64,000 nt of DNA. Source: a virus. Below, piece by piece: positions 13,304-35,687 of this stretch. Numbering within the stretch: the stretch's first letter is position 1; every line of letters starts with the position of its first letter. A program made the position numbers and the translations under genes. The notes beneath the pieces are model-generated. The model did no database searches. It saw only the letters and a program-made list of their open reading frames with translations, and was not told where the DNA came from. The stretch lies in the IMG/VR virus record IMGVR_UViG_3300012971_000002, positions 1 through 64,000 of that record; one strand, written 5' to 3'.

Positions 13304-16300
13304 TTGGTCTCGCAAGACCTAGATGTTTTCGGTGGTCTCTACACGGAATCCAATCCGCAAGATCTTGCTCCGGGCGCTTCCCCTGTCGCTGTCAATTGTT
13401 CGTTCATCATCGGTTCGGTAGAAATTCGGCCGGGGCTTCAATCGAATTTCTACTACACGGACTTCTTCCAAGAAAAATTGGATGGCTTCGCCGGGAACAT
13501 CAACGCAGTGAATCAGATTGCGTGGACCAACCCGATGAATGCCACGCTGAACAATGCTTCGCTGTTTGCTACCGTCGCACTGAATAACTCCGCACCGGCC
13601 GTCAACGGCATCATCTCGTTCGATCAGGTAATCACCGCAACAGATCTCACCGGCACCAGTGTTCACATCACCACGCCACCGCTCACACCTTCTTCGGCTG
13701 ACGATTGGGCATTATTCATTTCCACGATCTCGCTGTTCGGCGCTGGTGTTACGGTCTCGCCCAATGGAAGTTGGGTGCTACCGGCACCACCATTCTCCAC
13801 GATCCAAGGTGGTGCGGCTTATGAACAAGTAGCGACGGCCGCGGTTGCGGGCGATGCGAGCATCAACAATACAAACTTCTGGGCCGCTTCGCTTTTGCTG
13901 TTCAACATGGCCGGTTCACTCGAACCAACATGCGTGGGCAGTGCGGGAACGAGTGGCGGGTTTGGAATCGGAGATCACTTCGTTCCCTTTTCCAATCCGA
14001 ACATTGCCGGAAACATTCTCTTGTGCATTGTGGTATCGCAAGATGCTGGTGAGATGGGGATCGTAATCAGCGATTCCCAACTCAACGCATGGCACCGGCT
14101 CACCAAGACCGTCACCGCTCCGGGTGGCTTCGGCATCACGCAAGAAGTGTGGATGGTGGATTCCTGCAAAGCCGGTTCGAATACGGTGGATTGCAATATC
14201 GCCAGTAGTTCGATCACATCCGGCAGCATCACGATTTATGAAATGCAGAAAGGCAGCTTCGCGCCACCTTCCGGCAACACTTCACAGTTTCTTGAATTTT
14301 TGAATTTCCCTTTTTCCATTCCCACCACGCTTTCCGTGTTCGGTTTCGAGATCGAGATCAGCGGCAAGCAAGACAATCTTGCGCCGGACGCCATCCTGAC
14401 GCTGCAACTGTTGAATCCCGGTCCCACGTCGCCAACGCATACCTTCCAGCTTCCAGCATCCACCGGCACCGTCACATTCGGAAGTCCTACGGATGACTGG
14501 GGACTGACGCTGACACCGGCTTTGTTTAACGATCCCAACTTTGGGTTTAAGGTTCAGGCCACGGCGTTAAGCGGATCTGTCGTTACGTTCAGTATCAACG
14601 CTGCCTTCATCAAAGTCTTTCTGTCTCCGAATCCCGCGCCTTCGATCAATTACCTGAAGACGTTCGCGGAAACAGATGGACAGATCAACAATCTCTTCTT
14701 GGGCAGCAACGGAATCATGTATCAGGAAGATCCCAACAATGCGGAGTTCGCGCTCACCGCGGTCTACACGGCCATCGAACCGGGATCCTTCGCACAGTCT
14801 TGCACCCAATCGGATCGGGAGTTCATCGCCATCTCGGATCTCTTGCAGGGTACGGACATTCCGTACACCTACAACGATACGAACTTTGACCGTTGCTCAC
14901 AGGTTGGTCCGGGCGCACCGCCTTCTTGCTCGAGTTCGGCCGTTGGCCAGAACATTGTTTCGATCACCCAGACCGCGGCACAAAGTGATCCCGAAGCGGC
15001 GGGGCATCTTTCCGGCTTACTGTGGAGTTCCGGTCCGGGTAGCACATCACCGGGGAACGTGGTCACCGTCTACTATGCCCGCACCGCGGCGCTGGCCAAT
15101 CCGGATCCGAATTTGCAACCGGGAGTAGGCGTAGCGCTCGCCGGTCTGGGTGGCGTCAACTCAATTCCGCAACTGGCCAACGGCGTCTACACCGTCACCA
15201 GCATCGGCCAAGGGATCCCACCGGGAGCACAGTTCTCGCGTTGGTATTTCACGATCCAGCAAACTAGCACGCTGTTCCAGAATGAAGCCGATCACATCGA
15301 AGGCCATGGACCGTTCGGCACTTATCAGGTGACCACGGCCACGATGACTACGGCCGCACAAGTGCCGAATCTGCAGGTAGGCAATCAGTTCCAGATCTCC
15401 GGCACCGGTGGCGCTCCTACGGCTGGCTACGATGGCACTTGGACAGTGCTCACCACGCCGAATGCTTCCCAGTTGCAGATCACCAGCACCGTGCTTTCCG
15501 GCAACCTTGCCACCTACGGCTTCACGCTCATCACCGGCACCGCGCCAGTAGTGGGTGAGTTCGTCACCGTCACCGGCACGCTGAACGGCAACGGGATCTT
15601 CAACGTTACGAACGTGGTCATTCAGGCCGCATCGCCGGGAAACTTCACGATTCAATTGTTCGGGGCGAATGTTCCATCGGCCGCGGAGACTGGATCCGGA
15701 ATTATTGCCGGTACGATCTTCACTTTCGATCCCATGGCGATTGTGGGGAACAAAGCGGGTGGATCTATCGTCACCACCGGCATCGTAGGTGCTGGTGTTC
15801 GCAAGTGTTGCTACTCGTTTCTCACTCGCGACGGCTATCTGACGCAACCTTCACCGATCACTACCTTCGATGTGCCTTCCGGCGCGTCTACATTGGTCAT
15901 TTCCAATTTGCTTACCGGTCCACCGAACGTGGTGGCTCGAGTCATCCACTTGACCGCGGCCAATGGCGGCAACTTCTACAACATTCCGGAGCCGGTGCCG
16001 GTGCTTTCGAACGGCGTGACGATCACGAACACGTCTACATGGGTGAATGACAATACTTCCACCAGCGCCACACTGAGTTTTTCCGATGGCGTGCTTCTTG
16101 CGGCCACACAAATTGACACACAGGGCAACAATCTGTTCGAAACCGCGGAACTCGGCAGTTCTTTGGGCTTCGTTCCCTATGCCAGCCGCATTTTTGCGAT
16201 TGGCGAACAGAACAAGATCACGAATTTCCTGAATTGGTCTTTCGATGGCGGGATTTTGGGTGGATCCGGCGCTTCGGCAACCTATCCGGCCGGTTGGACG

Positions 16301-17911
16301 GTGGATTCCACAAGCGGCGGTGGTGTCAGTGTCATCAATTCGCCAATTTTCGGCTTCGCGTACTCCGTAACGAACTCTACCGGCAGCACGCAAGCAAAGT
16401 ACGGCATGATTTACCAGAACGCCTTTCAGGATGAGTTCCAAGTTCCGATCATCCAGCCGTCCACCACCTACAGCGTGCGCGTGACGGCGAGTTTGCCCAC
16501 CGGAGCGAGCACCGGACAGTTCGTGGTGGATCTTTTCAGCCCCACTATCGGCGTGGCATCGGGAACGTTCACGCTGCAGTTCACACAACTCACTAGCACG
16601 ATGCAGATCTTCACCGGCACGCTGTTGACTACCGGTCTAGCACCGGTGCCGAACGATCTCCGGCTCCGGATCTACACCACCAACATCCTGAACACCGTGC
16701 AATTCGTTGCGGATCGAGTGGAAGTCTTCCCCACGAAGCAACCGAACCTTGCCACGCAAGTTACCGGCAGCTACATCAACAATTTTGAAGCCTTCGATCA
16801 GGTGACCGGCGTAATTTCCGGTGCGGTCCAGAATCAACAGCCAATCCGATCGGCTTTTGTGCTTTTCGATGTGTTGTATCTCGTGAAGTCCAAATCTTTC
16901 TTGGCAATTCGCAATGTTGACGGTCTCGAGCCGGTATTTTGGGGAACTCCGCGAGTGGTCTCCAATTCTGTCGGCACGCCTTCGATCTACGGTGTCACTT
17001 CGGGCATTGATACGCCGAACTCCGGCGAAGAATGGAGCATCATCGCTGGGGAAGCCGGTGCATACATCTTCAACGGCGGCGAACCGGTGAAACTCTCGGA
17101 AGAGATCCAAACCTTGTGGAACCGGATTAACTGGGCTTACGGCCACACGCTCTGGGTACAGAATGACATCGAGAACCGAAGAATCTTGTTTGGTGTGCCA
17201 CTCAAAACTGTGGACGAAGATGGAAACTTCTTCCAGTGGCTACCGCAAGGATTCATTGCCGCGGATCCCGCACCCACCAAGCCGAATGTGGTGCTCGAAT
17301 TGAGCTACAAGATGCTGAACACGGCCGGGGCTTTGATGAACAGCGTTGGCGTGCGGCCAACTTACAGCGGCAAGCTGATCCACACCGATTACACACGCAA
17401 ATGGTCCGTATGGACGATGAGCATTCCAGCCGCGGCGTTTATTTCACGGAAAGCGCTCGCGGACAGTCCTACCGCGCCGATCATGCTGGGCAATTCCGCG
17501 AATAACGGCAAGATCTATCAATTAGTGGAAGGCTTCAAACAAGATGATGGCGTGGCGATTCACCAGAGCTACTTCACTTACGCTTTCCCGTCCACCGATC
17601 AGGAACAGAATCTTCGGATTGGTCCGACACGCAAAACGTTCCACATGCTCTTGGCCATCATTGACGGAACCGGATCCGTCGCGGTCACTGCTTACCCGAA
17701 CACACTAGATACGCCATTCGCCACACCGCTCGTGCCGGATCTTCCGCTCCCCGGTTCGAACAATGGCGATACGGAAATTGTGGTCAACGTTACAGCGAAC
17801 CGGTGTCTCTTCGGCTTCGATTCGAATGCAGTGGATTCCGGTTTCGAACTTTCGCGGCTCAACTTGTCCATGACGCCGGATCCGTGGGCACCGGTGCGCG
17901 GGAGTAACTAA
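13304..17911 (+). CDS. giant virion/tail protein (1535 aa)
   Basis: Uninterrupted 4.6-kb ORF with TTG start; Thr/Ser/Gly/Asn-rich beta-type composition; three internal copies of the G-x-V-x-(I/V)-x-G...(Y/F)(N/D)G-x-(F/W/Y)-x-V module. Confidence 0.7.
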   Translation: MVSQDLDVFGGLYTESNPQDLAPGASPVAVNCSFIIGSVEIRPGLQSNFYYTDFFQEKLDGFAGNINAVNQIAWTNPMNATLNNASLFATVALNNSAPAVNGIISFDQVITATDLTGTSVHITTPPLTPSSADDWALFISTISLFGAGVTVSPNGSWVLPAPPFSTIQGGAAYEQVATAAVAGDASINNTNFWAASLLLFNMAGSLEPTCVGSAGTSGGFGIGDHFVPFSNPNIAGNILLCIVVSQDAGEMGIVISDSQLNAWHRLTKTVTAPGGFGITQEVWMVDSCKAGSNTVDCNIASSSITSGSITIYEMQKGSFAPPSGNTSQFLEFLNFPFSIPTTLSVFGFEIEISGKQDNLAPDAILTLQLLNPGPTSPTHTFQLPASTGTVTFGSPTDDWGLTLTPALFNDPNFGFKVQATALSGSVVTFSINAAFIKVFLSPNPAPSINYLKTFAETDGQINNLFLGSNGIMYQEDPNNAEFALTAVYTAIEPGSFAQSCTQSDREFIAISDLLQGTDIPYTYNDTNFDRCSQVGPGAPPSCSSSAVGQNIVSITQTAAQSDPEAAGHLSGLLWSSGPGSTSPGNVVTVYYARTAALANPDPNLQPGVGVALAGLGGVNSIPQLANGVYTVTSIGQGIPPGAQFSRWYFTIQQTSTLFQNEADHIEGHGPFGTYQVTTATMTTAAQVPNLQVGNQFQISGTGGAPTAGYDGTWTVLTTPNASQLQITSTVLSGNLATYGFTLITGTAPVVGEFVTVTGTLNGNGIFNVTNVVIQAASPGNFTIQLFGANVPSAAETGSGIIAGTIFTFDPMAIVGNKAGGSIVTTGIVGAGVRKCCYSFLTRDGYLTQPSPITTFDVPSGASTLVISNLLTGPPNVVARVIHLTAANGGNFYNIPEPVPVLSNGVTITNTSTWVNDNTSTSATLSFSDGVLLAATQIDTQGNNLFETAELGSSLGFVPYASRIFAIGEQNKITNFLNWSFDGGILGGSGASATYPAGWTVDSTSGGGVSVINSPIFGFAYSVTNSTGSTQAKYGMIYQNAFQDEFQVPIIQPSTTYSVRVTASLPTGASTGQFVVDLFSPTIGVASGTFTLQFTQLTSTMQIFTGTLLTTGLAPVPNDLRLRIYTTNILNTVQFVADRVEVFPTKQPNLATQVTGSYINNFEAFDQVTGVISGAVQNQQPIRSAFVLFDVLYLVKSKSFLAIRNVDGLEPVFWGTPRVVSNSVGTPSIYGVTSGIDTPNSGEEWSIIAGEAGAYIFNGGEPVKLSEEIQTLWNRINWAYGHTLWVQNDIENRRILFGVPLKTVDEDGNFFQWLPQGFIAADPAPTKPNVVLELSYKMLNTAGALMNSVGVRPTYSGKLIHTDYTRKWSVWTMSIPAAAFISRKALADSPTAPIMLGNSANNGKIYQLVEGFKQDDGVAIHQSYFTYAFPSTDQEQNLRIGPTRKTFHMLLAIIDGTGSVAVTAYPNTLDTPFATPLVPDLPLPGSNNGDTEIVVNVTANRCLFGFDSNAVDSGFELSRLNLSMTPDPWAPVRGSN

Positions 17912-18516
17912 TGGCACTGGACATCCAGCGACAGATTGACGAATTGCGCCAGCATCCGGAACTGGGCAGAGCATTCTCTACAATCTTTCAGCGCATCGAA
18001 GATGCCATCAATCATCTCGCCGTCAACGCCGGTGTGGATGCCAATGGCGCGAAACTCCCACCGCCGCGGCCGTTGCAAGCGTTCAATGTGCAATCCGATG
18101 GCAATGGAACATTCCATGCTTCGATCTCGCACGATGCTCAATTGAACCGCGGCATTGCTTACTTCGCGGAATACGACACAGATCCCAGCTTCGCGAAGCC
18201 GCATGTGGTGCCGATGCACACCAGCCGCACGATGATCCCGCAAACGTTGCCGCACAAAGACGGAAACGGAAACGTCATCAATTACTACTGGCGGGCTTAC
18301 GCGCAATATCCCGGCAGTGATCCCGGCGTGAAGATGAACTTCGGCGGCACTACGCCTACGCCGCTCAATGCCGGTGGTGGCGCACAGATGGATCTCTTTG
18401 CCAGTACGGGAAGCGGCACCGCACAGAACTCCGGCGAAGAAGGTGGATCGGGTTTCGGAAAAGTGTTGTATCGTCAGGCCAGCGGAGTGAAGCGCACCAG
18501 CGCACAGAACCAATGA
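17911..18516 (+). CDS. hypothetical virion-module protein
   Basis: 201-aa ORF, TAATG overlap with the giant gene. Confidence 0.6.
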   Translation: MALDIQRQIDELRQHPELGRAFSTIFQRIEDAINHLAVNAGVDANGAKLPPPRPLQAFNVQSDGNGTFHASISHDAQLNRGIAYFAEYDTDPSFAKPHVVPMHTSRTMIPQTLPHKDGNGNVINYYWRAYAQYPGSDPGVKMNFGGTTPTPLNAGGGAQMDLFASTGSGTAQNSGEEGGSGFGKVLYRQASGVKRTSAQNQ

Positions 18517-18902
18517 TCCGTTCCTACGAACCGAAAGACGAAGTTGCGATTCACGAGATCTATCTGGCCAACCAACTTCCCGCGGAATGTTTTCCGGACT
18601 TCACCGATCCTTTGATGCTGCATACCGGCGTAGTGGAAATTGAAAACAAAGTGGTGATGTCGTGCTCGATCCGCGGCACTTCGGAACTGTATCTGTTCGT
18701 GGATCACGCGGCGGGCACGCCGGAAGAACGCTGGCAATGGATGCAGGAATTGCGCGAATACATCGTGCGCGAAGCATGGCGACTGGGTTTGGATCAGATG
18801 TCTTGCTGGATCCCACCGGAAATTGAACTAAGTTTCAAAGACCGGCTCGAGCAAATGGGATTCCAGAAGTCACCATGGTCTTGCTACACGTTGAAGTTAT
18901 GA
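18513..18902 (+). CDS. GNAT-like N-acetyltransferase candidate
   Basis: 129 aa, ATGA overlap; IRSYEPKDEVAIHEIY start and length fit a minimal GNAT fold; weak by-eye call. Confidence 0.45.
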   Translation: MIRSYEPKDEVAIHEIYLANQLPAECFPDFTDPLMLHTGVVEIENKVVMSCSIRGTSELYLFVDHAAGTPEERWQWMQELREYIVREAWRLGLDQMSCWIPPEIELSFKDRLEQMGFQKSPWSCYTLKL

Positions 18903-18963: not shown

Positions 18964-19632
18964 ATGGCAACCCGCGCCCATTCATTCACTGAATGCGCCC
19001 TAGCTGAACATCGAACTGAATCACTCCGCGGACTGTTCCATGTGGAACGTCACCCAGTCTACTTTGATCGTTCCATCCAAAGCCGTGCAAAGGGACAAGC
19101 CGATACATCTACGAATGTAGGAGCCGGTTACGGAGCTACAGCCGGACAGATCGGATCTTCGATTATCCCCGGACTCGAGCGGCAAGCACAAGGTGGCGTA
19201 GGACTCACTCCCACACAGAAGAACAATGCACTCGTGGCTGGTGCGGAAGCGGTAGGCGGTGCCGGAGCCGGTACACGCGGCGCGGCCACGCTCGAAGCGA
19301 TGCGAACACGGAATCCGGGTGGCTTCAGTGCGGCGCTCGATGAAGCGGCACGGCAACGCGGCCGTCAGACTTCAGCCAACGCGCTGGGTGTGGAGAATCT
19401 GGACACACAGATTGCGAACCAGAAACAGCGGGAAGCGCAACAGATGCTTGCCGGTCTCTACGGCACGGATACATCGCGCCAGTTGCAAGCGATGGGCTTG
19501 GCGAATGAAGATCTCAACACCGCGCTGAATGCCGGAAAAACAGGTTGGTTGCAGAACACCGAAGGTGTGCTGGACACGATCAGCGGTATGGGTAGTTCCG
19601 CGGCGGGTGTAAAGAAAGCGTTCTTCCCATAA
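18964..19632 (+). CDS. hypothetical internal-virion-type protein (Gly/Ala/Gln-rich)
   Basis: 222-aa ORF preceding two large coiled-coil/ejection-type proteins. Confidence 0.55.
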   Translation: MATRAHSFTECALAEHRTESLRGLFHVERHPVYFDRSIQSRAKGQADTSTNVGAGYGATAGQIGSSIIPGLERQAQGGVGLTPTQKNNALVAGAEAVGGAGAGTRGAATLEAMRTRNPGGFSAALDEAARQRGRQTSANALGVENLDTQIANQKQREAQQMLAGLYGTDTSRQLQAMGLANEDLNTALNAGKTGWLQNTEGVLDTISGMGSSAAGVKKAFFP

Positions 19633-19636: not shown

Positions 19637-21229
19637 ATGGCACCGACACTTGAAGAAATTATGAAGTTGCCGGACACGGTAAGTGATGACCACCTTGCCG
19701 CGCTGGGAATTTTGAAGAAGCCCGCACAACCGGCACCGCCTACGCCAATCAAACCGATGGCACCGGCCAGCGCTCGCGATATAGATCTGGCGGTGACCGG
19801 CGCACATGTTGGTCATCCCACGAATATCTCAGAACACAACAAAGAAATTTTGATGAGCGGCGCGGATCCCGGTCTCACGCCAACGGTTGGCGACAAAGGC
19901 GTGCTCACGGCGCTCGCACCGCAACCGCCGAATCTTTCGTTCAAGGAAAAGATGGCATTGCCACAAATGTCCGCGGCCGTGCCGATGGGATCTTCGAACT
20001 ACTACGAAGGCCAGCTACAGCGGGAAGCACTTGCAAAAGAGAATCCATGGGGAAGCGCGGAGAATCATCCGGGCGTACTGGGCAAGATCGGGCATGTGCT
20101 CGGACGTGTCGGCAACATCGCATTCACCGCGGCCGCGCCGGGATTGGCTACGCTCACAGAAGGTACAGATCTCAACAAACTGGCCGTAGCTTCACAGAAC
20201 CGGGAAGCGCTCGAGCGAGCCAAAACTCAGGAACTCGCGGAAGAATCCGAAAAGACACGCGCCAAGCATGAAGAGAACGTTTCGAATATCAACCAAGAAA
20301 AATTGGAAGAAACCGAACGCACCAACCGCGCCAAAGATGAAGTAAATCTCGCGAACCATGGCTTGAAGCGTGATGCGGAAGGGAACATTGTCGCGGATAC
20401 AGAATCGCCGGTCTATCAACAGAATCAGGAGAAGATGAAGAACGCGGCCGCGCTTCGCGACAGCGCCGTTGCCTTGCGGAAGTCCCAAGAGAATTTGAAC
20501 GTGGCGAAGGAAGAGTTCGAGAAGTCCAAGAACGATCCCAATTCGCCACAATATCAGCTTGCGCTGAAGAAACTGGCCGCGGCGAATCTGGCGCATGAAG
20601 TTGCCCAGAAGAATCTCGAATTGCACGAACGCGAGTACGAAAACAAAATAAAGGAACAGGAATTTGTTAAGCCTAGCGGTCAGAGTCAGAGCCGTGGTAG
20701 CGCCGCGCAAGCGGTTCTTGATTTGATCCCAGATCTAAAGAATTTGGTCAACGAACACCGTGCGGACATGGGACCAATTATGGGACGAATCAACCGCGGC
20801 GAACTCGAGATCGGAAACGTGGATCCGGAAATTGCGAAGCTGTATTCCGCGATGAAGTCTTTCTATGCGTTGCAACCGGCCGTGCATGGATTCAAAAACG
20901 CGGAGTTCGTCAAAGACTTCGAGCACGCGCTGGGTACACTCGAGCGGAATCCGGATGCGTTCATCTCCGGTATGGAAGGCTTGAGACCAACACTCGAATC
21001 TGTGGCCAAGGAAGGCAAGACGTTCCACCGGAGAATTGTGGAAGGCCAGCCGACTACTCCGGCCGGTGGCGCTACTCCACCCGCTGGGGGGGGACAACCG
21101 CCACAAGGAAAGTCTTGGGTTTACGATACAAAGGGTGACCGGCACGCGGTCTTCACGAACAAGCTTGATGACTTCCTGAAGGATCCCCAGTATAAGGGCT
21201 GGACCAAGAATGCCCCCACAGTCCACTAG
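19637..21229 (+). CDS. internal-virion-type coiled-coil protein
   Basis: 530 aa; long Lys/Glu/Asn/Ala heptad-like central region; position typical of ejection or core proteins. Confidence 0.6.
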   Translation: MAPTLEEIMKLPDTVSDDHLAALGILKKPAQPAPPTPIKPMAPASARDIDLAVTGAHVGHPTNISEHNKEILMSGADPGLTPTVGDKGVLTALAPQPPNLSFKEKMALPQMSAAVPMGSSNYYEGQLQREALAKENPWGSAENHPGVLGKIGHVLGRVGNIAFTAAAPGLATLTEGTDLNKLAVASQNREALERAKTQELAEESEKTRAKHEENVSNINQEKLEETERTNRAKDEVNLANHGLKRDAEGNIVADTESPVYQQNQEKMKNAAALRDSAVALRKSQENLNVAKEEFEKSKNDPNSPQYQLALKKLAAANLAHEVAQKNLELHEREYENKIKEQEFVKPSGQSQSRGSAAQAVLDLIPDLKNLVNEHRADMGPIMGRINRGELEIGNVDPEIAKLYSAMKSFYALQPAVHGFKNAEFVKDFEHALGTLERNPDAFISGMEGLRPTLESVAKEGKTFHRRIVEGQPTTPAGGATPPAGGGQPPQGKSWVYDTKGDRHAVFTNKLDDFLKDPQYKGWTKNAPTVH

Positions 21230-24017
21230 TGATGATTACGGTCTCGAGAAAGCGCCCATCCCGGCCGTTCTCGATGATAAGTATGGGCTAGAAAAGTCCA
21301 CCGCTACAGCCGCGCCACCCAAGACACAGGCAGAGAAGAACGCCGAAGCACTGAAGACCGTTGGCCGCGTCACGGAGTTCGAAAAGAATCCGGAAGCCCA
21401 ACAGCCCAGCATCTTCCAGACGGCGAAACGAGTTCACGAAGCCGGACAACAGGAAGCGGAAAAATATCTACCGGAATCACTGAAACAGCCTTATCGGGAA
21501 TCACAGGATCTCACGCATCTCGCGATGGGACCGCTCGGAATGGTCTCACCGTATATTCACACCGGACTGGGTAAAGCGGGTGACGTCGCGGCTGAAGAAG
21601 CGGAACGGCAAAAGACTTTGCAGCAACAGGCCGCGGCTCAAGGCAAGCCGATAGATCCGCGTGCTTTCACTGGTGTCGGCGCACTTGGCGCACTCGCTGA
21701 TACCGCACATCTGGGATCTGAGATGTTCACGCCGAAAGGTATCGCCACCACGGCCGGTGCGGTGCTTGCCAATACGAATCCGGTGACCGCTGTTCCAGTA
21801 GATCTTGCTTTCATGGCTCACGGCGCTAAAGGTTTGAGCGAAGCGGCTCCCGAAGCTTTGAAGGGAGATCCGCAAGCGATTCAGAACGCTTTGCTGTCCA
21901 CTTCGGAAATGACCGGAGCCGCGGCCGGACTTCCTGAGAACGTACCGAAGTTTATCCCGGCAGCGAAAACAGCCATCGCCAAAGTTGGCGAACCGTTCCA
22001 CATCGGGATGACCGGCGAAGAACTCCTGAAGAAAGGCGTCTCGCCACGCGCACAAGCCACCGGCTGGGATGAAGCGGTAGCGCGTCCGGGTGTTCAGCGT
22101 GCGCTCGTGGAGCACAACAAAGCCACGCCGATCAACAGCGCCGCGGATCTCGATGAAGCCATCCCGGTGATGAAAGACAAGATCTGGACAGAGAAAGTTG
22201 AACCGGCACTCGAGCGGCAAGGCCAGCGGCCGGTAGACATGAAGCCGGTAGCGGATGCCATCCGTTCGGAAAAAGTAATATCGAAAGAGATGCAACGCTT
22301 TGAACCAGAAGAAGCCGCGAAGCTTAACAAGTTGGCCGATGATCTGAGTCACGCCGAAACCGTGGAAAGCGCAAATGGTCTCTTGAAGTATGTGAACGGA
22401 AAACTCGAAACCTACTTCCAGAAGTATCCCAGCGCACGCCGCGCCAACTTGATGAACAACCCGGAAACAGCCGGATGGGAAGCAGCACGCCAAACCATTC
22501 GTCAGCAATTTCTGAAGACGCTCGAAGATGCCGGGGAAACTCAGGTGCGCGATGCGCGTGGCGATTACGGTGCGCTCGAGACGATGGGCAAAGAAGTGGA
22601 GCGCCGCGTCAATGTGGCCGAACGTCAGAAGCCATGGAGTCTACCGCGGATCTTGGGTGTGACCGGTGCATTGCCTACGGCTGGGACAAGTCTTGCGCTG
22701 GGCGAACTGATTCATCACTTAAACAAGCCGGATGTGCTTATCCGTCGCGGTGTCGGACGGCTTGAGCCACCACCGGAAGCGCCGTTCACGGCACCGCCGA
22801 AGTTCACACCGGCCGCGCCACCGCCACCGGCCGCAACCCAGATCCCGATGAATCTCCCACCGGAGAACGCACCGCTGTTCAACATTCAGCAAACGCCGCG
22901 GCTCCGGCCGGACATGGAAGCGCCGCGGCTTGGTCCGATCACCGGCGAACAGACTCCGCTTCACCTTCCGGAATCGCCGGAGCAAGCGCCACTCTTCAGT
23001 ATTCCGCAAACTCGCGGCAACGTACCCGAGACGCCGAAGATCGGTGGAGAAGGTTTGAAGCTTGGTCCACCGCACAACGTGGAAGCGGAAACGGCCGGAC
23101 TTCCGAAGGTAAAGACCGGCGAAGGCACCGTCACCCGCGGCACAACAGCGAATTTCCAACCGGCGAAAGGCGCGGGCAGACAAGCCACCACGGCCGAAAC
23201 CGCGGAACTTCCCAATCTTCCTAATCCGAAGCCCGCGGATCTCAAGCCGGGAGAAACCGTTCAGGACCGCTTCTTCGATGAGAAGACGAAGCAATGGGCA
23301 CCAGAGCGGCAAGCGAACCACGCGGCTTATGTAGAACACAACCTGAAGGGCAAGGTAGCTCCTACGGATCGGCCACCGGAAGCCACGATCACGATTGGCG
23401 GCACCGGCGCTGGCAAGAGTACGTTCACGCGGAAATATCTCGATGAGAATCCGAACGCCGTGAACGTGGATCCGGATCGAGCGAAGCTATCGGTGCCGGA
23501 ATACGAAGGCTTGAAGAAGACAGATCCGGCGAAGGCGGCGTTCCGAGTACACGAAGAAGCTTCGTCCATGTCCAAGCAACTCCTGAAAGCGGCCGCGGAA
23601 AAGAAGATGGACTTCTTGTATGACACCACTACCGGTGGAAGTGATGCCGCGCTTTACCAGCGCTTAAAGGATGCCGGATACCACGTCCGGATCGTCTATG
23701 TGGATCTCCCGGTGGAAGAAGCCATCAATCGAGCGAAGCTTCGTGCGGAATCAAGTCCAGATCCGGCGAGCCGCGGCCGTGTCGTACCGGAAAACATCAT
23801 CCGGCAGAAACATCAAGAAGCGGCGAATACCTTTATGAAGTTCAAGAACGATCCATCCGTGGATGAGATCCAAGCCTACGATAACAGCGGCAAGAATCTG
23901 GAACCGTTCTATAATCGGAAAGGCACCACGGAAAAGACGTACAACCCGGAAACATTCGAACGTGTTCGCGCCAAGGCAGGAGCCAATGAACCCAAGCCAG
24001 CCGGAAAAGTCCACTAA
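21210..24017 (+). CDS. large virion-module protein with C-terminal zeta-toxin-like P-loop kinase domain
   Basis: 935 aa. C-terminal ITIGGTGAGKSTF...NVDPDRAKLSVPEYEGL...FLYDTTTGG...GYHVRIVYVDLPVEEAI...R...IQAYDNSGK parallels the zeta/PezT layout. Pro-rich linker upstream. Confidence 0.7.
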   Translation: MPPQSTSDDYGLEKAPIPAVLDDKYGLEKSTATAAPPKTQAEKNAEALKTVGRVTEFEKNPEAQQPSIFQTAKRVHEAGQQEAEKYLPESLKQPYRESQDLTHLAMGPLGMVSPYIHTGLGKAGDVAAEEAERQKTLQQQAAAQGKPIDPRAFTGVGALGALADTAHLGSEMFTPKGIATTAGAVLANTNPVTAVPVDLAFMAHGAKGLSEAAPEALKGDPQAIQNALLSTSEMTGAAAGLPENVPKFIPAAKTAIAKVGEPFHIGMTGEELLKKGVSPRAQATGWDEAVARPGVQRALVEHNKATPINSAADLDEAIPVMKDKIWTEKVEPALERQGQRPVDMKPVADAIRSEKVISKEMQRFEPEEAAKLNKLADDLSHAETVESANGLLKYVNGKLETYFQKYPSARRANLMNNPETAGWEAARQTIRQQFLKTLEDAGETQVRDARGDYGALETMGKEVERRVNVAERQKPWSLPRILGVTGALPTAGTSLALGELIHHLNKPDVLIRRGVGRLEPPPEAPFTAPPKFTPAAPPPPAATQIPMNLPPENAPLFNIQQTPRLRPDMEAPRLGPITGEQTPLHLPESPEQAPLFSIPQTRGNVPETPKIGGEGLKLGPPHNVEAETAGLPKVKTGEGTVTRGTTANFQPAKGAGRQATTAETAELPNLPNPKPADLKPGETVQDRFFDEKTKQWAPERQANHAAYVEHNLKGKVAPTDRPPEATITIGGTGAGKSTFTRKYLDENPNAVNVDPDRAKLSVPEYEGLKKTDPAKAAFRVHEEASSMSKQLLKAAAEKKMDFLYDTTTGGSDAALYQRLKDAGYHVRIVYVDLPVEEAINRAKLRAESSPDPASRGRVVPENIIRQKHQEAANTFMKFKNDPSVDEIQAYDNSGKNLEPFYNRKGTTEKTYNPETFERVRAKAGANEPKPAGKVH

Positions 24018-24100
24018 GAAGATGGATCCGGCCTTGAAAGAAGGCCACTACATTGACGAACAGTTGCCGGTGAACTGGACCGATGAAGATCTCGCCGGAA

Positions 24101-24583
24101 TTAAGTCCAATCACCAGAAATCACAACCGGCCGAGAAAAATCAGGATGAGCCGAAAGATAACCGATAACGTCCCACATATTTGACCAATCCATACTCGGA
24201 CTGAAGTGAACCAGCGCACCTTCGAATTTGTCCGCATTTGCTTTGTTCGGCCGGTCATCAATCAAGACGTCACCTTTCAAGATGCTCTTGTCACCAACCA
24301 TGACGATCTTTTCTTTTAGCTCCGGCAACCATCGCAGGATCCACAGAACTTTATCAGAGTAAGCATGAGCCACACCGGTTGGCGGTTTGGTGGCAATCCA
24401 CACATCATGGCCAAGTTCGATCAACCGATAAACTCCGGCGATGGCTCCGCGGATCGGCTCCATCTTTGCATACGCGCCTTCGATCTCCTGAAGCTGTTCG
24501 CCTGTGACTCGCCAGAGATCTTTTAAGGCATCGAAGTCAGCGAGTACACCGTCCATGTCAACGTAGATCCGCATCGTTTTCAC
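24101..24583 (-). CDS. 5'(3')-deoxyribonucleotidase (HAD superfamily, NT5C-like)
   Basis: 160 aa, GTG start; DMDGVLADF HAD motif I, ATKPP, VMVGDK...LIDD. Confidence 0.8.
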   Translation of the reverse strand: MKTMRIYVDMDGVLADFDALKDLWRVTGEQLQEIEGAYAKMEPIRGAIAGVYRLIELGHDVWIATKPPTGVAHAYSDKVLWILRWLPELKEKIVMVGDKSILKGDVLIDDRPNKANADKFEGALVHFSPSMDWSNMWDVIGYLSAHPDFSRPVVISGDWT

Positions 24584-28747: not shown

Positions 28748-30610
28748 ATGAAGATCGGAATTGTGACGAATATCAGCGCGGGGATCGGCTTGGCCACCGA
28801 ATATGGGCTTCTTCGCGATTACCTTGAAAAGCTTGGCCACCAAGTAACCGGCTTCCAGTTCGATGAAGAAGCGCCGGAGAAGCTGGAACCGATAGATCTA
28901 ATGATCTCGCTGGAAACCGTGTGCCGTCATCTGGTGGACATCGCGCCGGTCAATTGGCTGATCCCGAATCCGGAATGGACCAAGCCGCACGATCTGGATC
29001 TGATCGGCAGAGCCTACAATAAGATCCTGTGCAAGACGCGGGAAGGCGAGCGGATCTTCAAGTGTTACTTTCCGGACCGGACGCATTATGTAGGCTTTCT
29101 GGCGCGTGACGTCTTCAATCCACAGATCATCCGGAAACAGCGCTTCCTTCACATTGGCGGCAATTCCTCTTTCCGCGGTACTCAAGAAGTGCTCGATGCG
29201 TGGAAGTGGCGCAAGGATGGCTTCCCGATTGGCGCAGAACTCCTGATCGTCAGCAAGGCATTGCGGGAGCGGCCGGAGATCCCGAACGTGAAGTACTTCG
29301 ATTGGCTACCGGAGAACGAACTCCGTACGCTGCAGAATGAATGCCTGTTCCATATCTACCCGTCCGGAACCGAAGGTTTCGGCCACGCTATCCGTGAAGC
29401 GATGAGCACGAACGCCATGGTGCTGACCACGGCCGCACCGCCGATGGATGAGATCCATAGCGCCAGTAAAGTCCAAGCCCACGGTTGGTCCACCTATAAC
29501 CTTGCGAAAGTCTACGAAGTTTCCGCGCTGGATATTCATGTGGCGTGCAAGGAATTTCTTGCGAATAGTTCGCTGTTCGGTTATGGAATCTTCGGGGATT
29601 CACGCGAAGAGTTTTTGCGCGGCAATGAGTTCTTCCGGACCGCTTTCGCGGAACATCTCGAAGACTTCGTGCCGCGCTCCATGCGGATGGCTATCGCTTC
29701 CCGGCAAGGAAAGATGCGGATCTCATTCTTGGGGAATTTCCTTGCGGCCGAAAGCACGGAGAACATGATCCGTTGGGCGCTCGAGCAAGCGCTCGATCAC
29801 AGCGTGGATCTCCTGCAGGAGAACGAAGCCACACTCCGGAAGATAGATCTATCGTGTCGGAACTCGGATCTCTTTCTCTGGGTACGAACTCCCGGCTGGC
29901 TCAAAGTAGAAGACCGGGAAATGTTGGCGTGGCTTGCGGATCGTGGCTACCGGACCGCGAGCATCCATCTGGACAAGTTCTGGGGAATCCCTGAACGGGA
30001 AGCGCTGATCGGCAAGATCCCATTCTGGAAGACGAACTTTGTCTTTACCGCGGACGGTTCACGCGACGAAGACTTCGAAAAAGCCGGTGTCAATCATCAT
30101 TGGATGCAACCGGCTGTCAGCGAAGTCTACGTCCATCCCGGCACACCGCGAGATCACTACCGGTGCGATGTGGGATTCGTAGGCGCAAAGGATTACCACA
30201 GCGAGTATCCCTTCCGGCGTCAGATGGTGGAATTTCTCGAACGGACGTATGGCAACCGCTTCAAGCACATCACCGGGATCCGCGGCCACGAACTGAACGA
30301 TGTCTATGCGAGCATGAAGATCGTGGTGGGTGATTGCATTTTTGCCGGAACGCCGCGGTATTGGTCAGACCGCGTGCCGGAAACAATCGGCCGTCACGGC
30401 TTTCTTCTTCACCCGGAAGTACAGGGCTTGGATCTCCCGGTAGCCACTTACCAGCCGCAAGATCTCAAGTCACTCAAGGAACAGATTGATCTGTGGCTGT
30501 TCAATGAGGGACCGCGGAAAGAAGTGATAAAACAAGGTGTGGAACAGATCCGGCGCGATGATACTTGGACCGTGCGAATGCGCCAGATCTTGGAGATTGT
30601 CACGGCATGA
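28748..30610 (+). CDS. two-domain glycosyltransferase (GT4-like plus CgeB-like C-terminal domain)
   Basis: 620 aa; FHIYPSGTEGFGHAIREAMSTNAMVLTT matches the GT1/GT4 E-x-F-G...EAM motif; C-terminal half resembles Glyco_trans_1_2/CgeB-type; AAGGGAGAA SD. Confidence 0.75.
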   Translation: MKIGIVTNISAGIGLATEYGLLRDYLEKLGHQVTGFQFDEEAPEKLEPIDLMISLETVCRHLVDIAPVNWLIPNPEWTKPHDLDLIGRAYNKILCKTREGERIFKCYFPDRTHYVGFLARDVFNPQIIRKQRFLHIGGNSSFRGTQEVLDAWKWRKDGFPIGAELLIVSKALRERPEIPNVKYFDWLPENELRTLQNECLFHIYPSGTEGFGHAIREAMSTNAMVLTTAAPPMDEIHSASKVQAHGWSTYNLAKVYEVSALDIHVACKEFLANSSLFGYGIFGDSREEFLRGNEFFRTAFAEHLEDFVPRSMRMAIASRQGKMRISFLGNFLAAESTENMIRWALEQALDHSVDLLQENEATLRKIDLSCRNSDLFLWVRTPGWLKVEDREMLAWLADRGYRTASIHLDKFWGIPEREALIGKIPFWKTNFVFTADGSRDEDFEKAGVNHHWMQPAVSEVYVHPGTPRDHYRCDVGFVGAKDYHSEYPFRRQMVEFLERTYGNRFKHITGIRGHELNDVYASMKIVVGDCIFAGTPRYWSDRVPETIGRHGFLLHPEVQGLDLPVATYQPQDLKSLKEQIDLWLFNEGPRKEVIKQGVEQIRRDDTWTVRMRQILEIVTA

Positions 30611-31479
30611 TTCCTGTTCTCTGGCACCACGCGGATAGTTTTTGGGATTGTGCAATGCCGCGGTACATTCTGGATTACGCGACGGAATGTGACCATCAAA
30701 TCCTCAAGCCGGAAGGCTACAACCCGATTGGCCGGATCGGCGTGATCGTGATTCCCGGCCGTCATTCATGTGGCGACTATGAAGTGCTGAACCGTGTGGC
30801 CAGTCTTTACAGCAAAGTAGTCTGGATTATCATTGGCGACGAAGAAGGGATCTTCCACTCCGATCAGTTGCAACATCCGAACCAGCGGCTCTGGTGGTTC
30901 ATGCCACCGATCAATCCCAAGCAAAAAGTGGATGTTCCGGCCATCAACGGCTGGACCACGAAAGCGCTCGATCTGATCTATGAACAGAAGAAGCGGCACC
31001 TTCCGCGTAAGTGGGATTGGTCTTTCTACGGACAGGTGACACACAGCCGTCGCGTGCAATGCGTAGATGCGCTGCAGAGTATTCCGAACGGGGACATCGT
31101 TGTGACGCCGGGATTCTCGCAAGGCGTGCCGCAAGAACAGTACTTTGAAACCATGGTGCAATCGAAGTTTGTTCCTTGTCCGGCCGGTCCGTGTACGGTG
31201 GATTCGTTCCGGTTCGCGGAAGCGCTTGAAGCCGGTTGTATTCCCATCGCAGACAACCGCACCCAGCACGAAAGCTATCCACCGGGATACTGGGAATATG
31301 TTCTCGGAAACAAGTTCTTTCCGTTCTGGGTAATCAACGATTGGGCCAAGTTGCCGGACGTGATCGAGACGTTGCTTCCGAAGTGGAAGGATGTCTCGGA
31401 AGAGTGTATGCACTTCTGGAAGTCCTACAAGAAGTCACTCGTGAGGCAAATGCGAAAGGATCTCGAATGCGAGATATAA
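30607..31479 (+). CDS. exostosin/GT47-like glycosyltransferase
   Basis: 290 aa, ATGA overlap; FVPCPAGPCTVDSFRFAEALEAGCIPI matches the exostosin-family C-terminal motif. Confidence 0.6.
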   Translation: MIPVLWHHADSFWDCAMPRYILDYATECDHQILKPEGYNPIGRIGVIVIPGRHSCGDYEVLNRVASLYSKVVWIIIGDEEGIFHSDQLQHPNQRLWWFMPPINPKQKVDVPAINGWTTKALDLIYEQKKRHLPRKWDWSFYGQVTHSRRVQCVDALQSIPNGDIVVTPGFSQGVPQEQYFETMVQSKFVPCPAGPCTVDSFRFAEALEAGCIPIADNRTQHESYPPGYWEYVLGNKFFPFWVINDWAKLPDVIETLLPKWKDVSEECMHFWKSYKKSLVRQMRKDLECEI

Positions 31480-32183
31480 CCGTGGTGATTCCCACTTCAC
31501 CGATCCCGGCGCATCCTTCCACGGAGATTATCGAGCGCACGATCCAATCCATCCGGAAACATTTACCGGATTCTGAGATCGTCATCATGTGTGATGGCGT
31601 GCGGCCGGAAGTGGAACATCGCAGCAAGCAATACCGGGAATACCTTGTCTACCTGATCGAACAGGTGAATTTCAGGTATGCCAACGTTTTAATCTGTCCC
31701 TTTGCGAAGCACCTACAGCAAGCCGGAATGATGAAGGCAACTATGGCGTGGTGCCACACGCCGCTTGTTCTTTTCTGTGAGCACGACGCCACGATTGATG
31801 ACAAGCCGATTGATTGGCTGGGAATCCGCTGGATGCTGGCTTCCGAAAAAGCCAATACAGTTCGCTTCTACTGGCACGAAACCTTGCACCCGGAGCACCA
31901 GCATCTCTTCGGGGAACGCGAAGGGGACTTCGTTAAAACGATCCAGTGGTCTTCGTGGCCGCACGTCTCCCGCACGGACTTCTATCGGCGCATTCTGGAC
32001 GAATACTTTTCCGGCGATGATTGCAAGATGATCGAAACCGTGATGTACTCGCCGGTCTTGGAATTGCCGTGGGAAAAGTTCAAGACATGGATTTACGCTC
32101 CCGAGCCGGACGCTATCCGCTTCCACCATCTGGATGCACGGCGAGATCCGGTAACAGGCGAAAAAGATCCGGGGAGTTGGTAA
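31467..32183 (+). CDS. GT-A fold glycosyltransferase (GT2-like)
   Basis: 238 aa; ITVVIPTSPIPAHPS...VIMCDG N-terminus; 13-nt overlap with upstream gene. Confidence 0.55.
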   Translation: MRDITVVIPTSPIPAHPSTEIIERTIQSIRKHLPDSEIVIMCDGVRPEVEHRSKQYREYLVYLIEQVNFRYANVLICPFAKHLQQAGMMKATMAWCHTPLVLFCEHDATIDDKPIDWLGIRWMLASEKANTVRFYWHETLHPEHQHLFGEREGDFVKTIQWSSWPHVSRTDFYRRILDEYFSGDDCKMIETVMYSPVLELPWEKFKTWIYAPEPDAIRFHHLDARRDPVTGEKDPGSW

Positions 32184-32938
32184 TGGCTGAATCGCAAGAA
32201 GATGTGATCGGCAAGATGCAAGTCTGGGCATGGAACGAGATTGCTCGAGTTCATCCGGAGATCAAACCGCACTTTTTCAGTTTCGATGATCCGTACATGA
32301 TAAGTGAGATCGTAGCGCGTGACACTTACCGCTTCCGTGCCAAGCCCGGAGATCGTGTCATGGACATCGGCGCGAACGTAGGAGTCTTCACAACGTTGTG
32401 TGCGGTGAACGGCGCACAAGTAACCGCCTACGAACCACACCCGGAAGCTTATCTCATCTTGCTGGACACGATTCAGCGGAGCGGCATCCAAGACCGCGTG
32501 ATCCCGAAACAAATGGCTGTGTGGACGCATTCCGGCCAGTGTGCATACCATCCGGGCAAGACTCCGGCGCATAGCCATCCCGGCCAGACATGGGATTCCT
32601 ACAATGGCGCTGTGGTGTGGCCGGACAATTCCGGACCGGCGAACATGGCATGTGTTTCCTTCGAAGACGCCATCGGACTCGAAGACTGGGATTGCGTAAA
32701 GATGGACATCGAAGGCGCGGAGTTTGAACTTCTCCTGACCGCACCGCTTGAAGCGTTACTACGGATCAAATACCTGACACTGGAACTCCACAACGGCTGG
32801 GCTGAGAAACCGGCTTATGATGCGCTGATCGAACTATTGGGCAAGTTCTTCAAGCTTGAAGGAACTCCGGACGGGGATCCCCGCTTCGCCGGAGAAGACC
32901 GTTTCATTTCCGTCTATGCAACACGAAAGGCACTTTGA
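32183..32938 (+). CDS. FkbM-family SAM-dependent methyltransferase
   Basis: 251 aa, TAATG overlap; VMDIGANVGVFT...AYEPHPEAY...KMDIEGAEFELL. Confidence 0.75.
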   Translation: MAESQEDVIGKMQVWAWNEIARVHPEIKPHFFSFDDPYMISEIVARDTYRFRAKPGDRVMDIGANVGVFTTLCAVNGAQVTAYEPHPEAYLILLDTIQRSGIQDRVIPKQMAVWTHSGQCAYHPGKTPAHSHPGQTWDSYNGAVVWPDNSGPANMACVSFEDAIGLEDWDCVKMDIEGAEFELLLTAPLEALLRIKYLTLELHNGWAEKPAYDALIELLGKFFKLEGTPDGDPRFAGEDRFISVYATRKAL

Positions 32939-33774
32939 TGACTACCTTGTTGATGACCGGCGCAACCGGCTTTGCTGGCCGCGCTGTAGTGAATGAAGTT
33001 CTCACTCGAACCGATTGGAATATCGCCTCATTTCAAAGAGAGTGTGGAAAATTCGAATCGGAAAGAGTGGTGGAAATTCCTTGGGACTTCAAACATCCGA
33101 TGCTGGAAGCGTATATGCGTGTTCCTGTTGATGCTGATATGTTTTTCCTTCATCTTGGTGCCGATGTCCATGCTCTGCGTTCCTTGAAGGATCCGGCTTC
33201 TTTTGTAGAAACCAACGTAATGGGGACCGCCAACGTGCTCGATCTTGCTCGCCGGATGGATGTGGATCTCTTTGCTTACGTTTCCACCGGCGAAGTCTTT
33301 GGTGGCCGCGACGATGGCTACAGCAACGAAGAGGATCCGCACCGGCCGTCCAATCCTTACGCTGCAACCAAAGCCGCGGGCGAACTCCTGACGTACAGCT
33401 ATCACCGCGCTTTTGATCTACCGGCAATCATCGTGCGGACACTAAACATCTTCAGTATGGATCAAAAGGATCCGTCCAAGTTCGTGCCGATTGTCCGCAA
33501 AGCGCTCGAGACCGGCGAGACGATGAAGCTTCATGCGAAAGATGGAAGACCGGGAGTCCGTCAGTGGCTCCATGTCACCGCTTTCGCCAATCAACTAGTG
33601 GATCTCCTGAAAACTGCAACCATCGGCAAGTCATACCATCTCTACGGGGAAGAACTGAACAACCTGCAGATGGCCCAGCGTGTGGCCACGGAACTGGGCA
33701 AGGAACTGAAGTACGAATTTATCCGGATGCCGAAGACGCACGAATACCGTTATGCGATGGCGAGAAACCGATGA
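32935..33774 (+). CDS. NAD-dependent sugar epimerase/reductase (extended SDR)
   Basis: 279 aa, ATGA overlap; MTGATGFAGRAV Rossmann motif and YAATKAAGE (YxxxK). Confidence 0.8.
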   Translation: MMTTLLMTGATGFAGRAVVNEVLTRTDWNIASFQRECGKFESERVVEIPWDFKHPMLEAYMRVPVDADMFFLHLGADVHALRSLKDPASFVETNVMGTANVLDLARRMDVDLFAYVSTGEVFGGRDDGYSNEEDPHRPSNPYAATKAAGELLTYSYHRAFDLPAIIVRTLNIFSMDQKDPSKFVPIVRKALETGETMKLHAKDGRPGVRQWLHVTAFANQLVDLLKTATIGKSYHLYGEELNNLQMAQRVATELGKELKYEFIRMPKTHEYRYAMARNR

Positions 33775-35359: not shown

Positions 35360-35363
35360 ATTT

Positions 35364-35687
35364 TTGTCTTTCTTTATACATGGCCATGCCACTGATAATG
35401 GAAGAACCGCCGAGTACGATGCTTGGCATAACATGCTTCAACGTTGCACAAATCCCAATCGTCCGGGCTATAGAGATTATGGTGCTCGCGGGATAAAGGT
35501 GTGTGTCCGATGGCGTGTTTTTGTAAATTTTTTGATGGATATGGGAAGAAAGCCTTCTGAAAAACACAGCATAGATCGAATCAACAATAACGGGAACTAT
35601 GAACCAGAAAATTGCCGTTGGGCCACCCGATCTCAGCAACAATCTAATCAACGAAAGCGCCGAAAGAAAGGATCTATTCATGCGTGA
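35364..35687 (+). CDS. small HNH/AP2-like DNA-binding protein (family often annotated HNH endonuclease)
   Basis: 107 aa, TTG start; EYDAWHNMLQRCTNP...YGARGIKVC..W..F..FL.DMG.KP....IDRINNNGNYEPENCRWAT; visibly A/T-richer than flanks. Confidence 0.6.
   Translation: MSFFIHGHATDNGRTAEYDAWHNMLQRCTNPNRPGYRDYGARGIKVCVRWRVFVNFLMDMGRKPSEKHSIDRINNNGNYEPENCRWATRSQQQSNQRKRRKKGSIHA

Follow-up and report, generated by a model that had tools for sequence, protein, structure and literature searches.

Injected phage effectors are known to travel on MuF, on portal-associated proteins, on T4 Alt/IP-type head proteins, and on the N4 virion RNA polymerase (vRNAP). The polyvalent proteins (Iyer, Burroughs, Anand, de Souza, and Aravind 2017) include a zeta-toxin-like kinase fused to phage MuF (PMC5512222), and the MuF polymorphic toxins of temperate phages (Jamet et al. 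2017) have a virion-associated N-terminal module followed by a hypervariable C-terminal toxin-like domain (PMC5576092). The locus described here lies in a viral stretch of 64,000 nucleotides (nt) (positions 1 to 64,000 of IMG/VR record IMGVR_UViG_3300012971_000002), which as a whole is referred to as the window. Its subject is a gene for a protein of 935 amino acids (aa), in which a zeta-family kinase domain follows a large carrier region and a Pro-rich linker. The kinase is one of several interchangeable cargos, and the protein would thus be a member of the polyvalent, or polymorphic, injected effector class. It is believed with moderate confidence to be a packaged and ejected protein in the position of P22 gp16, whose disordered tether would expose the host cytoplasm to an active kinase of the zeta family as infection begins.

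The principle is not novel, as an injected zeta-like kinase on a phage structural protein has already been published by Iyer et al. (PMC5512222). Among the papers searched, none joins 'zeta toxin' and 'ejection protein'. One new element is the carrier, a large unannotated family that occupies the gp16 position and has a defined junction to its cargos; the other is a kinase subfamily that lacks the motif for UDP-N-acetylglucosamine (UDP-GlcNAc, UNAG) and has motifs in common with AvrRxo1. Like the polyvalent proteins, the 935-aa protein has its gene among those for virion proteins and joins an enzymatic effector domain to a module for delivery or structure, and the cargos of its carrier family (zeta-like kinase, ddrB-ParB, GNAT, RelA/SpoT, and 2H) overlap the published repertoire. 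In contrast, its carrier is not MuF, portal, relaxase, or any other listed anchor, but an unannotated helical protein in the gp16 position. Polyvalent in the strict sense are the relatives P0180 (core, zeta, and ParB) and P0002 (core, zeta, and GNAT), whereas the protein of the window has one enzymatic domain.

The open reading frame (ORF) is as given in a preliminary description of the locus, and an identical 935-aa product is predicted in three public assemblies (JGI, ENA, and Logan). All the motifs quoted in that description were found and their coordinates verified, namely the Walker A motif, VNVDPDR...PEY, FLYDTTTGG, GYHVRIVYVDLP (aa 823-834), and YDNSGK (aa 890-895). The last of these was called terminal, but 40 further residues lie beyond it. 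The kinase domain is present as described, but not its start: it was placed in the last 230 aa or so, and the fold begins near aa 681, because the conserved N-terminal helix W696-x-P-E-R-x-x-x-H704 belongs to it. Likewise, the Pro-rich linker exists (17% Pro, predicted disorder), with both of its repeats (LPPENAPLFNIQQT and LPESPEQAPLFSIPQT), but is nearer 140 aa than the 170 aa proposed. The features of the gene are as follows.

21210 to 24017, + strand: whole gene for the 935-aa carrier-linker-kinase protein, with an ATG start and a 20-nt overlap with the upstream 530-aa gene
21210 to 21944, + strand: variable N-terminal region of low model confidence, aa 1-245
21945 to 22829, + strand: conserved all-helical carrier core, aa 246-540, with a predicted local distance difference test (pLDDT) score of about 85-96
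22830 to 23249, + strand: Pro-rich linker, predicted to be disordered, aa 541-680
22854 to 22895, + strand: linker repeat 1, aa 549-562
22965 to 23012, + strand: linker repeat 2, aa 586-601
23010 to 23048, + strand: cargo junction, aa 601-613
23250 to 23987, + strand: zeta-family P-loop kinase domain, aa 681-926
23295 to 23321, + strand: W-A-P-E-R-Q-A-N-H helix motif, aa 696-704, common to AvrRxo1 (WHPERRKLH)
23391 to 23423, + strand: Walker A (P-loop) TIGGTGAGKST, aa 728-738, including Lys736
23466 to 23477, + strand: V-D-P-D, aa 753-756, with Asp756 as the aligned catalytic base
23547 to 23564, + strand: V-H-E-E-A-S subfamily signature, aa 780-785, where AvrRxo1 has VHSESS and zeta/PezT have none
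23619 to 23639, + strand: Y-D-T-T-T-G-G, aa 804-810, at the position of E-G-T-x-R in zeta/PezT
23742 to 23780, + strand: lid arginines Arg845 and Arg857, which align with PezT Arg157/Arg170 and zeta Arg158/Arg171

The C-terminal domain is a genuine zeta-family kinase, and the preliminary assignment to the zeta/PezT family is borne out by Pfam, by profile searches of the PDB, and by Foldseek. Pfam PF06414 (Zeta_toxin) covers aa 717-896 with E=1.7e-31 and 109.7 bits (cut-off 22.3), a match far above chance, compared with 40 bits for AAA_33 on the same protein. A single-sequence phmmer search of the PDB gave weak matches, to T4 Pnk alone. A 5-sequence profile gave PezT (1.3e-12), zeta (1.9e-12), and Pnk (1e-08), and a 65-sequence profile gave zeta (5.3e-25), PezT (8.5e-21), AvrRxo1 (3.8e-15), Pnkp1 (7.9e-15), and T4 PNK (2.3e-07). 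The profile bit scores are 92 for zeta, 78 for PezT, and 59 for AvrRxo1. AlphaFold2, given the 65-sequence alignment, modelled aa 660-935 with a pLDDT of 92.2 and a predicted TM-score (pTM) of 0.89. The 12 best PDB matches of this model in Foldseek are all PezT, zeta, or AvrRxo1 (9e-11 to 7e-09), with PezT at 9e-11 and the best polynucleotide kinase at 8.5e-06, and the highest query TM-score is 0.68, with AvrRxo1. The preliminary description had named a polynucleotide kinase as an example of an unrelated P-loop family to which the domain might turn out to belong; such kinases rank below the zeta-family structures.

A neighbour-joining tree of the kinases, made without bootstrap, groups the six carrier-borne kinases with P0030 (GNAT-zeta) and with P0051/P0052, which are located on phage-like contigs. 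This carrier-borne clade is apart from a stand-alone bacterial group of about 290 aa. One stand-alone relative of that size, P0059 (L010:5001-5864, on a 759-kb bacterial contig), lacks any antitoxin-like gene beside it. Two genes upstream of it is a YjeF_N/Carb_kinase gene for NAD(P)HX repair, and a nitroreductase-like gene stands between the two; the association is maybe due to chance.

The epsilon/zeta and PezAT systems resemble the domain in fold, Walker A motif, catalytic Asp, and lid arginines, and supply its best overall sequence matches. When the catalytic base Asp is mutated in zeta, PezT, or AvrRxo1, activity and toxicity are abolished (PMC3062530, PMC5491322). Asp756 aligns with zeta Asp67, PezT Asp66, and AvrRxo1 Asp193 in three independent alignments and is kept in 64 of the 65 relatives, as is each of Gly730, Gly735, and Lys736 of the Walker A sequence GGTGAGKST (aa 730-738). 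Arg845 is likewise kept in 64/65 and Arg857 in 60/65 subfamily members. The conservation of Lys736, Asp756, Arg845, and Arg857 in 60-64 of the 65 members makes the domain look catalytically competent, and it is probably active.

The substrate site is different. In zeta and PezT, UNAG is bound by the GTXR motif and by Glu99/100 (PMC6362051). The GTXR motif is absent here; the aligned sequence Y-D-T-T-T-G-G has no Arg, and has Asp in place of Glu. The substrate-site Glu (zeta E100, PezT E99) is absent as well, and the aligned residues are Lys790/Gln791. Two near-invariant motifs of the subfamily, VHEEAS and WxPERxxxH, are found in AvrRxo1 and not in zeta/PezT. AvrRxo1 is a 3'-kinase of nicotinamide adenine dinucleotide (NAD) and nicotinic acid adenine dinucleotide (NAAD), and does not phosphorylate UNAG (PMC5491322). 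The UDP-GlcNAc kinase activity implied at first is therefore unsupported, as GTXR and Glu99/100 are missing and the distinctive motifs match AvrRxo1. Judged by these residues, canonical UDP-GlcNAc recognition is unlikely, and a NAD-like dinucleotide, another nucleotide, or a sugar-nucleotide is a possible candidate substrate. Beyond the missing GTXR and Glu99/100, the domain is unlike epsilon/zeta and PezAT in having no antitoxin gene and in its fusion to a 610-aa carrier.

AvrRxo1, a type III effector of Xanthomonas, is comparable in another respect, as it is a zeta-family kinase that a secretion or injection device puts into the target cell. Common to both are W-x-P-E-R-x-x-x-H, V-H-x-E-x-S, and an Asp rather than Glu before the GTXR position, and AvrRxo1 gives the top TM-score. 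These shared traits may or may not determine NAD specificity. In contrast, the profile score of AvrRxo1 is below those of zeta and PezT (59 vs 92 and 78 bits), and there is no Arc1-type antitoxin at the present locus.

The window also contains a sugar-nucleotide and glycosylation cluster at 28748-36624 (+ strand), with a 620-aa GT1 glycosyltransferase, a RXYLT1_C-like protein, Methyltransf_21, and two NAD-dependent epimerase/dehydratases. Similar sugar genes are found near kinase relatives, namely GT1 in L003, and NTP_transferase, epimerase, and GT2 in L009. This neighbourhood may be a coincidence, or it may point to a connection of the kinase with nucleotide sugars. Converging on the kinase gene is a gene for an NT5C/HAD-type 5'(3')-deoxyribonucleotidase (24101-24583, - strand; Pfam 7.8e-14). 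HAD phosphatases pair with kinases in T4 Pnkp, and here the two genes are on opposite strands.

The best kinase match in a cultured phage is ORF030 of cyanophage P-SS2 (L017:2801-7300; phrog_16619). Residues 370-650 of this 1,500-aa protein belong to the same subfamily, with the same motifs and 171.8 bits against the subfamily hidden Markov model (HMM). It was detected in purified virions by mass spectrometry (MS), with 96.5 peptides on average (PMC2784084). The protein is called a 'minor head protein' in GenBank and a 'major capsid protein' in the paper. Unlike the protein of the window, ORF030 has no match to the core HMM, its kinase is internal, and P-SS2 is a siphovirus. As ORF030 is without the carrier core, the kinase subfamily occurs on at least two virion-associated carriers, one of them with proteomic support.

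The carrier comprises a family of its own. No Pfam, PHROG, NCBIfam, or PADLOC match falls in the first 680 aa, and Pfam, run on the full protein and on aa 1-547, detected no MuF domain (PF04233) in this N-terminal region. A homology search found 28 close relatives, whose common region is aa ~246-540. An exhaustive profile search gave 621 representative clusters at E<=1e-3 and 100 at E<=1e-30. The median carrier length is 599 aa, 45 of 161 members exceed 700 aa, and the longest has 2,015 aa; the added length in long carriers is almost wholly C-terminal to the core (161 members). In BFVD the carrier matches exclusively uncharacterised proteins of uncultured tailed phages. Weakly hydrophobic Gly/Ala-rich segments are located at aa 184-202 and 481-499, and there are no strong transmembrane (TM) helices. 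The N-terminal one of these segments, within aa ~170-240 (21720-21930), has 42% identity with the otherwise unrelated 635-aa P0029, and so the carrier N-terminus is itself mosaic.

The close relatives have one conserved core in common but differ at the C-terminus, where their tails form at least six unrelated classes. When 44 long members were scanned with Pfam, Zeta_toxin was found in 6, ddrB-ParB in 4, and DUF7178 in 3, and His_Phos_1, 2H phosphoesterase, RelA_SpoT, and GNAT in 1 each. The following relatives illustrate the exchange.

P0002 (L003:10001-14074): core, zeta, and GNAT
P0180: core, zeta, and ddrB-ParB
P0191 and P0222: core and ParB
P0136: carrier and double APLFNI linker as in the protein of the window, then a RelA/SpoT-like domain (26.4 bits, just under the 27-bit cut-off)

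Similarity to the relatives with other cargos, P0136, P0009, and P0131, stops at aa 601-613, right after repeat 2. Six carriers have the double APLF motif; three of them bear zeta and the other three do not. This indicates that the motif belongs to the carrier and marks the cargo junction. By analogy, such a junction would recall the pre-toxin demarcation motifs of polymorphic toxins. The sequence Q-A-P-L-F in repeat 2 (22965-23012) resembles the bacterial β-sliding-clamp-binding motif Q-x-x-[LM]-F, which is pure speculation, and the repeat may just as well serve for cleavage, for docking, or to mark recombination. GNAT joins the kinase subfamily twice, in opposite orders (zeta-GNAT in P0002 and GNAT-zeta in P0030); this suggests that GNAT and kinase may act on a common target.

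The resemblance to MuF polymorphic toxins thus lies in the virion-associated N-terminal module and the variable toxin-like C-terminus, and MuF toxins with APK/RelA-SpoT-type domains (PMC12226406) have a counterpart in the RelA/SpoT-like cargo of the close cousin P0136. In contrast, the present protein has no MuF domain, and no ORF downstream makes a convincing immunity gene. A further difference is that the window gives no sign of a temperate lifestyle, and no integrase is among the genes examined.

The position of the gene is that of a pilot protein gene. In the window, the structural block on the + strand ends with genes for 1535, 201, 129, 222, 530, and 935 aa, followed by a strand switch. 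The members of this run, apart from the kinase gene, include the following.

13304 to 17911, + strand: 1,535-aa Thr/Gly/Ser/Asn-rich fibre/spike-like protein, upstream of the operon
18513 to 18902, + strand: 129-aa gene, conserved in L003, positional counterpart of P22 gp14 (151 aa)
18964 to 19632, + strand: 222-aa Gly/Ala-rich gene, positional counterpart of P22 gp7 (229 aa)
19637 to 21229, + strand: 530-aa gene with a coiled-coil-like stretch, positional counterpart of P22 gp20 (471 aa)

In P22 the order is gp10(472)-gp26(233)-gp14(151)-gp7(229)-gp20(471)-gp16(609), and then a strand switch. The final trio of the window (222/530/935 aa) compares with gp7, gp20, and gp16 of P22 (229/471/609 aa). 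L003 keeps the order 1535-201-129-222-530-935 and the strand switch, and its sequences are similar; L006 shares the last two genes. L004 has a run of 76, 115, 256, 501, and 732 aa, the last being the carrier, after a P22-gp10-type gene (PF11134) and a 406-aa gene; its gene sizes are similar to those of the window, sequence similarity is limited to the 732-aa carrier, and the trio is located five genes downstream of the gp10-type gene. The last-gene position of the carrier in the structural operon holds in four divergent phages.

Ejection proteins are matched by size and synteny in the field (PMC8954989), and by these criteria the 935-aa protein is a gp16-position protein. As with the P22 and T7 gp16 pilot proteins, its gene closes a trio of rising size that follows the tail-hub genes, is the largest of the three, and precedes a strand switch. 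The carrier family has a median of 599 aa, against 609 aa for P22 gp16. P22 gp16 alone spans the cytoplasmic membrane, has no strongly predicted TM helix, and is present in about 6-12 copies (bioRxiv 10.64898/2026.09.03.749273); the carrier is alike in having only weakly hydrophobic Gly/Ala segments. T7 gp16 provides the precedent for an enzymatic domain, a transglycosylase, on an ejection protein (PMC8954989). The differences are that sequence or profile similarity is not detectable, and that the present module is a C-terminal, ATP-dependent kinase, tethered by a disordered linker and putatively cytoplasm-directed, instead of a periplasmic N-terminal muralytic domain. Homology of the core to gp14, gp7, gp20, gp16, gp26, and gp10 of P22 was examined by hhalign and not borne out (<=0.3%, with 0.3% for the single gp16 sequence), and the hhalign probabilities across all ejection-protein comparisons are 0.1-1.1%, none of which demonstrates homology. 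The label of an internal-virion or ejection-type protein, used in the preliminary description, thus stands for position, size, and composition, but not for sequence homology.

The neighbours in the operon have no Pfam, PHROG, or NCBIfam matches, and neither the carrier nor its partners have a PADLOC match. A tape-measure role for the 1,535-aa protein was rejected on composition, and no other tape-measure candidate is present. The 129-aa protein appeared GNAT-like by eye; it has no Pfam match and only 0.3% in hhalign against the GNAT modules of P0002 and P0030, and the impression is thus not supported.

No epsilon- or PezA-like antitoxin gene adjoins the kinase gene, as first noted, since the upstream gene encodes the 530-aa operon partner and the ORF downstream has no family match. 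One annotation calls this ORF as follows.

23986 to 24168, + strand: 60-aa ORF, overlapping the kinase gene and the convergent NT5C gene

Its product is hydrophilic and of low complexity, has no PADLOC match, and is not conserved beside a zeta-bearing relative. It is unlikely to be an immunity or antitoxin gene because it overlaps two genes and lacks this conservation, and it was rejected as such.

In the favoured mechanism, the first ~610 aa form the carrier, which consists of the variable N-terminus, the helical core, and the Pro-rich tether with two LPPxxAPLF repeats, and sits where P22 has gp16, its largest ejection (pilot) protein. The final ~250 aa are a P-loop kinase of the zeta/PezT/AvrRxo1 family with its catalytic residues intact. 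A few copies would be packaged in the head and expelled ahead of the DNA, together with the 222-aa and 530-aa partners. The carrier would then engage the cytoplasmic membrane, like P22 gp16, and the long disordered tether would let the kinase reach the cytoplasm. Once there, and ahead of all phage gene expression, it would transfer phosphate from host ATP to a hydroxyl group on an abundant metabolite of the nucleotide type. Because injected proteins act before phage gene expression, they are leading candidates for a first strike against host defences. A delivered effector rather than a toxin-antitoxin (TA) module, as the preliminary description proposed, is the best-supported reading on the comparative evidence of gene position and cargo swapping.

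Several points weigh against this mechanism. Delivery itself, that is packaging, ejection, and topology, is inferred, as is the substrate. A folded kinase of ~28 kDa must unfold for the tail channel and then refold, and the biological benefit of the kinase is speculative. The carrier core has no significant PDB match in Foldseek with the full-length model, the weak matches being to helical bundles or α-pore-forming toxins (probability <=0.12). None of 73 diverse carriers matches a PHROG with a virion role, and a 127-sequence carrier profile gives 1.1% in hhalign against a 7-member gp16 family from cultured phages. The P-SS2 peptides are not assignable to the kinase segment from the published table, and the Walker A motif of that protein is GKG, not GK[ST]. 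The portal and capsid genes of the phage were looked for and not identified.

The same domain could instead belong to a late protein that is not delivered and acts in the producer cell, for instance on nucleotide or sugar-nucleotide pools tied to the phage glycosyltransferase and epimerase genes, or in assembly, with its position being incidental. The packaging of the carrier is inferred rather than directly evidenced, the carrier has no detectable homology to known virion proteins, and the phage as well as two kinase relatives encode sugar-nucleotide enzymes, all of which fit such a role. It is nevertheless rather unlikely. The last-gene position in the structural operon is fixed in four divergent phages, a disordered tether with swappable toxin-like cargos is typical of delivered effectors (PMC5512222, PMC5576092), and the same kinase subfamily occurs inside a virion protein confirmed by MS (PMC2784084).

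Canonical zeta chemistry on delivery, in which phosphorylation of the UDP-GlcNAc 3'-OH would inhibit MurA and locally weaken the peptidoglycan for DNA entry or lysis, is unlikely. Zeta and PezT are the best overall matches in sequence and fold, the domain retains the catalytic Asp and the two Arg, its Thr at aa 806/807 could replace zeta Thr118, and this role was proposed by Iyer et al. for phage- and plasmid-borne zeta-like kinases (PMC5512222). In contrast, YDTTTGG without Arg replaces GTXR, and Lys/Gln are found at Glu99/100 (PMC6362051). Zeta and PezT lack the invariant VHEEAS and WxPER of the subfamily, and AvrRxo1, which does not act on UNAG (PMC5491322), has them. A few injected molecules facing the UNAG pool in the first minutes would be of doubtful benefit.

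A bolder and quite improbable version of the delivered kinase makes it a putative AvrRxo1-like kinase of NAD or immune-signal nucleotides on the membrane-spanning component of a podovirus-type ejection channel, with the APLF duplication as a recombination junction for cytoplasm-directed enzymes. Such a kinase would shield or rewire the host pool derived from NAD against NAD-dependent anti-phage systems within seconds of adsorption and before transcription.

A polynucleotide 5'-kinase (PNK) like T4 Pnk or Pnkp, mending tRNA or DNA ends cut by host defence nucleases, is very improbable, and this assignment was dropped after the profile and fold searches ranked the zeta family first. Secondary matches to AAA_33 and to the PHROG 'polynucleotide kinase', the Pnkp1 match of 7.9e-15 with the deep profile, the resemblance of D-T-T to the D-x-T-N of PNKs, and the gene for an HAD-family NT5C phosphatase directly downstream on the other strand all point toward it. 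However, the zeta family is ahead by about 5 orders of magnitude in Foldseek, where its matches span the whole domain and those of PNKs the P-loop core alone. The Pfam scores (Zeta_toxin 109.7 bits vs AAA_33 40 bits) agree, and no fused or co-oriented ligase or 3'-phosphatase is present.

The toxin of a TA or abortive-infection-type module, with a cis-acting antitoxin as in EzeT or an unrecognised small antitoxin, is hardly credible, for although zeta-family membership, the 60-aa ORF called just downstream, and the small downstream immunity ORFs usual for MuF toxins (PMC5576092) would suit it, that ORF overlaps two genes, is hydrophilic and of low complexity, and has neither a PADLOC match nor conservation, the upstream gene encodes a 530-aa structural-operon protein, and the kinase is fused to a 610-aa carrier common to non-toxin cargos.

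The window is phage DNA and comes from an uncultured phage of about 67 kb, which is probably short-tailed. L002 coordinates on the ENA contig k141_6555433 (67,105 bp) imply that the window is a rotation of the same 67-kb sequence, which points to a complete genome, either circular or terminally redundant. The majority of relatives are from contigs of 41-47 kb. On the 67,105-bp contig, a large terminase gene lies just upstream of the window start, and its product is ~24% identical to the terminases of diverse phages; tblastn gave no match for an 863-aa putative portal. Two further proteins of the window (42600-44327 and 54258-55391), when looked up for contigs, gave no match either. The window also encodes RecT, DUF5131, a HerA-like ATPase, an M15 peptidase, and a GDSL esterase-Ig protein. 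The last (37921-39483, + strand, 520 aa) has an N-terminal GDSL esterase and a C-terminal Ig-like domain (Big_1 below the Pfam cut-off), and is plausibly a virion-associated polysaccharide deacetylase. A 150-aa protein of the head module (8673-9125, + strand) is a borderline GroES/Cpn10 match (21.0 bits vs a cut-off of 21.1; PHROG co-chaperonin GroES 1.2e-05).

If the 621-cluster family is indeed the gp16-type ejection protein of widespread uncultured phages, the ejection channel would be a modular delivery vehicle. Its cargos, which comprise the zeta/AvrRxo1-like kinase, RelA/SpoT-like, 2H, ParB, GNAT, histidine phosphatase, and several unknowns, would then represent a catalogue of early-acting effectors. 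The kinase subfamily without the UNAG motif, which is also present in a virion protein of P-SS2, would offer a tractable route to a new substrate of the zeta family.

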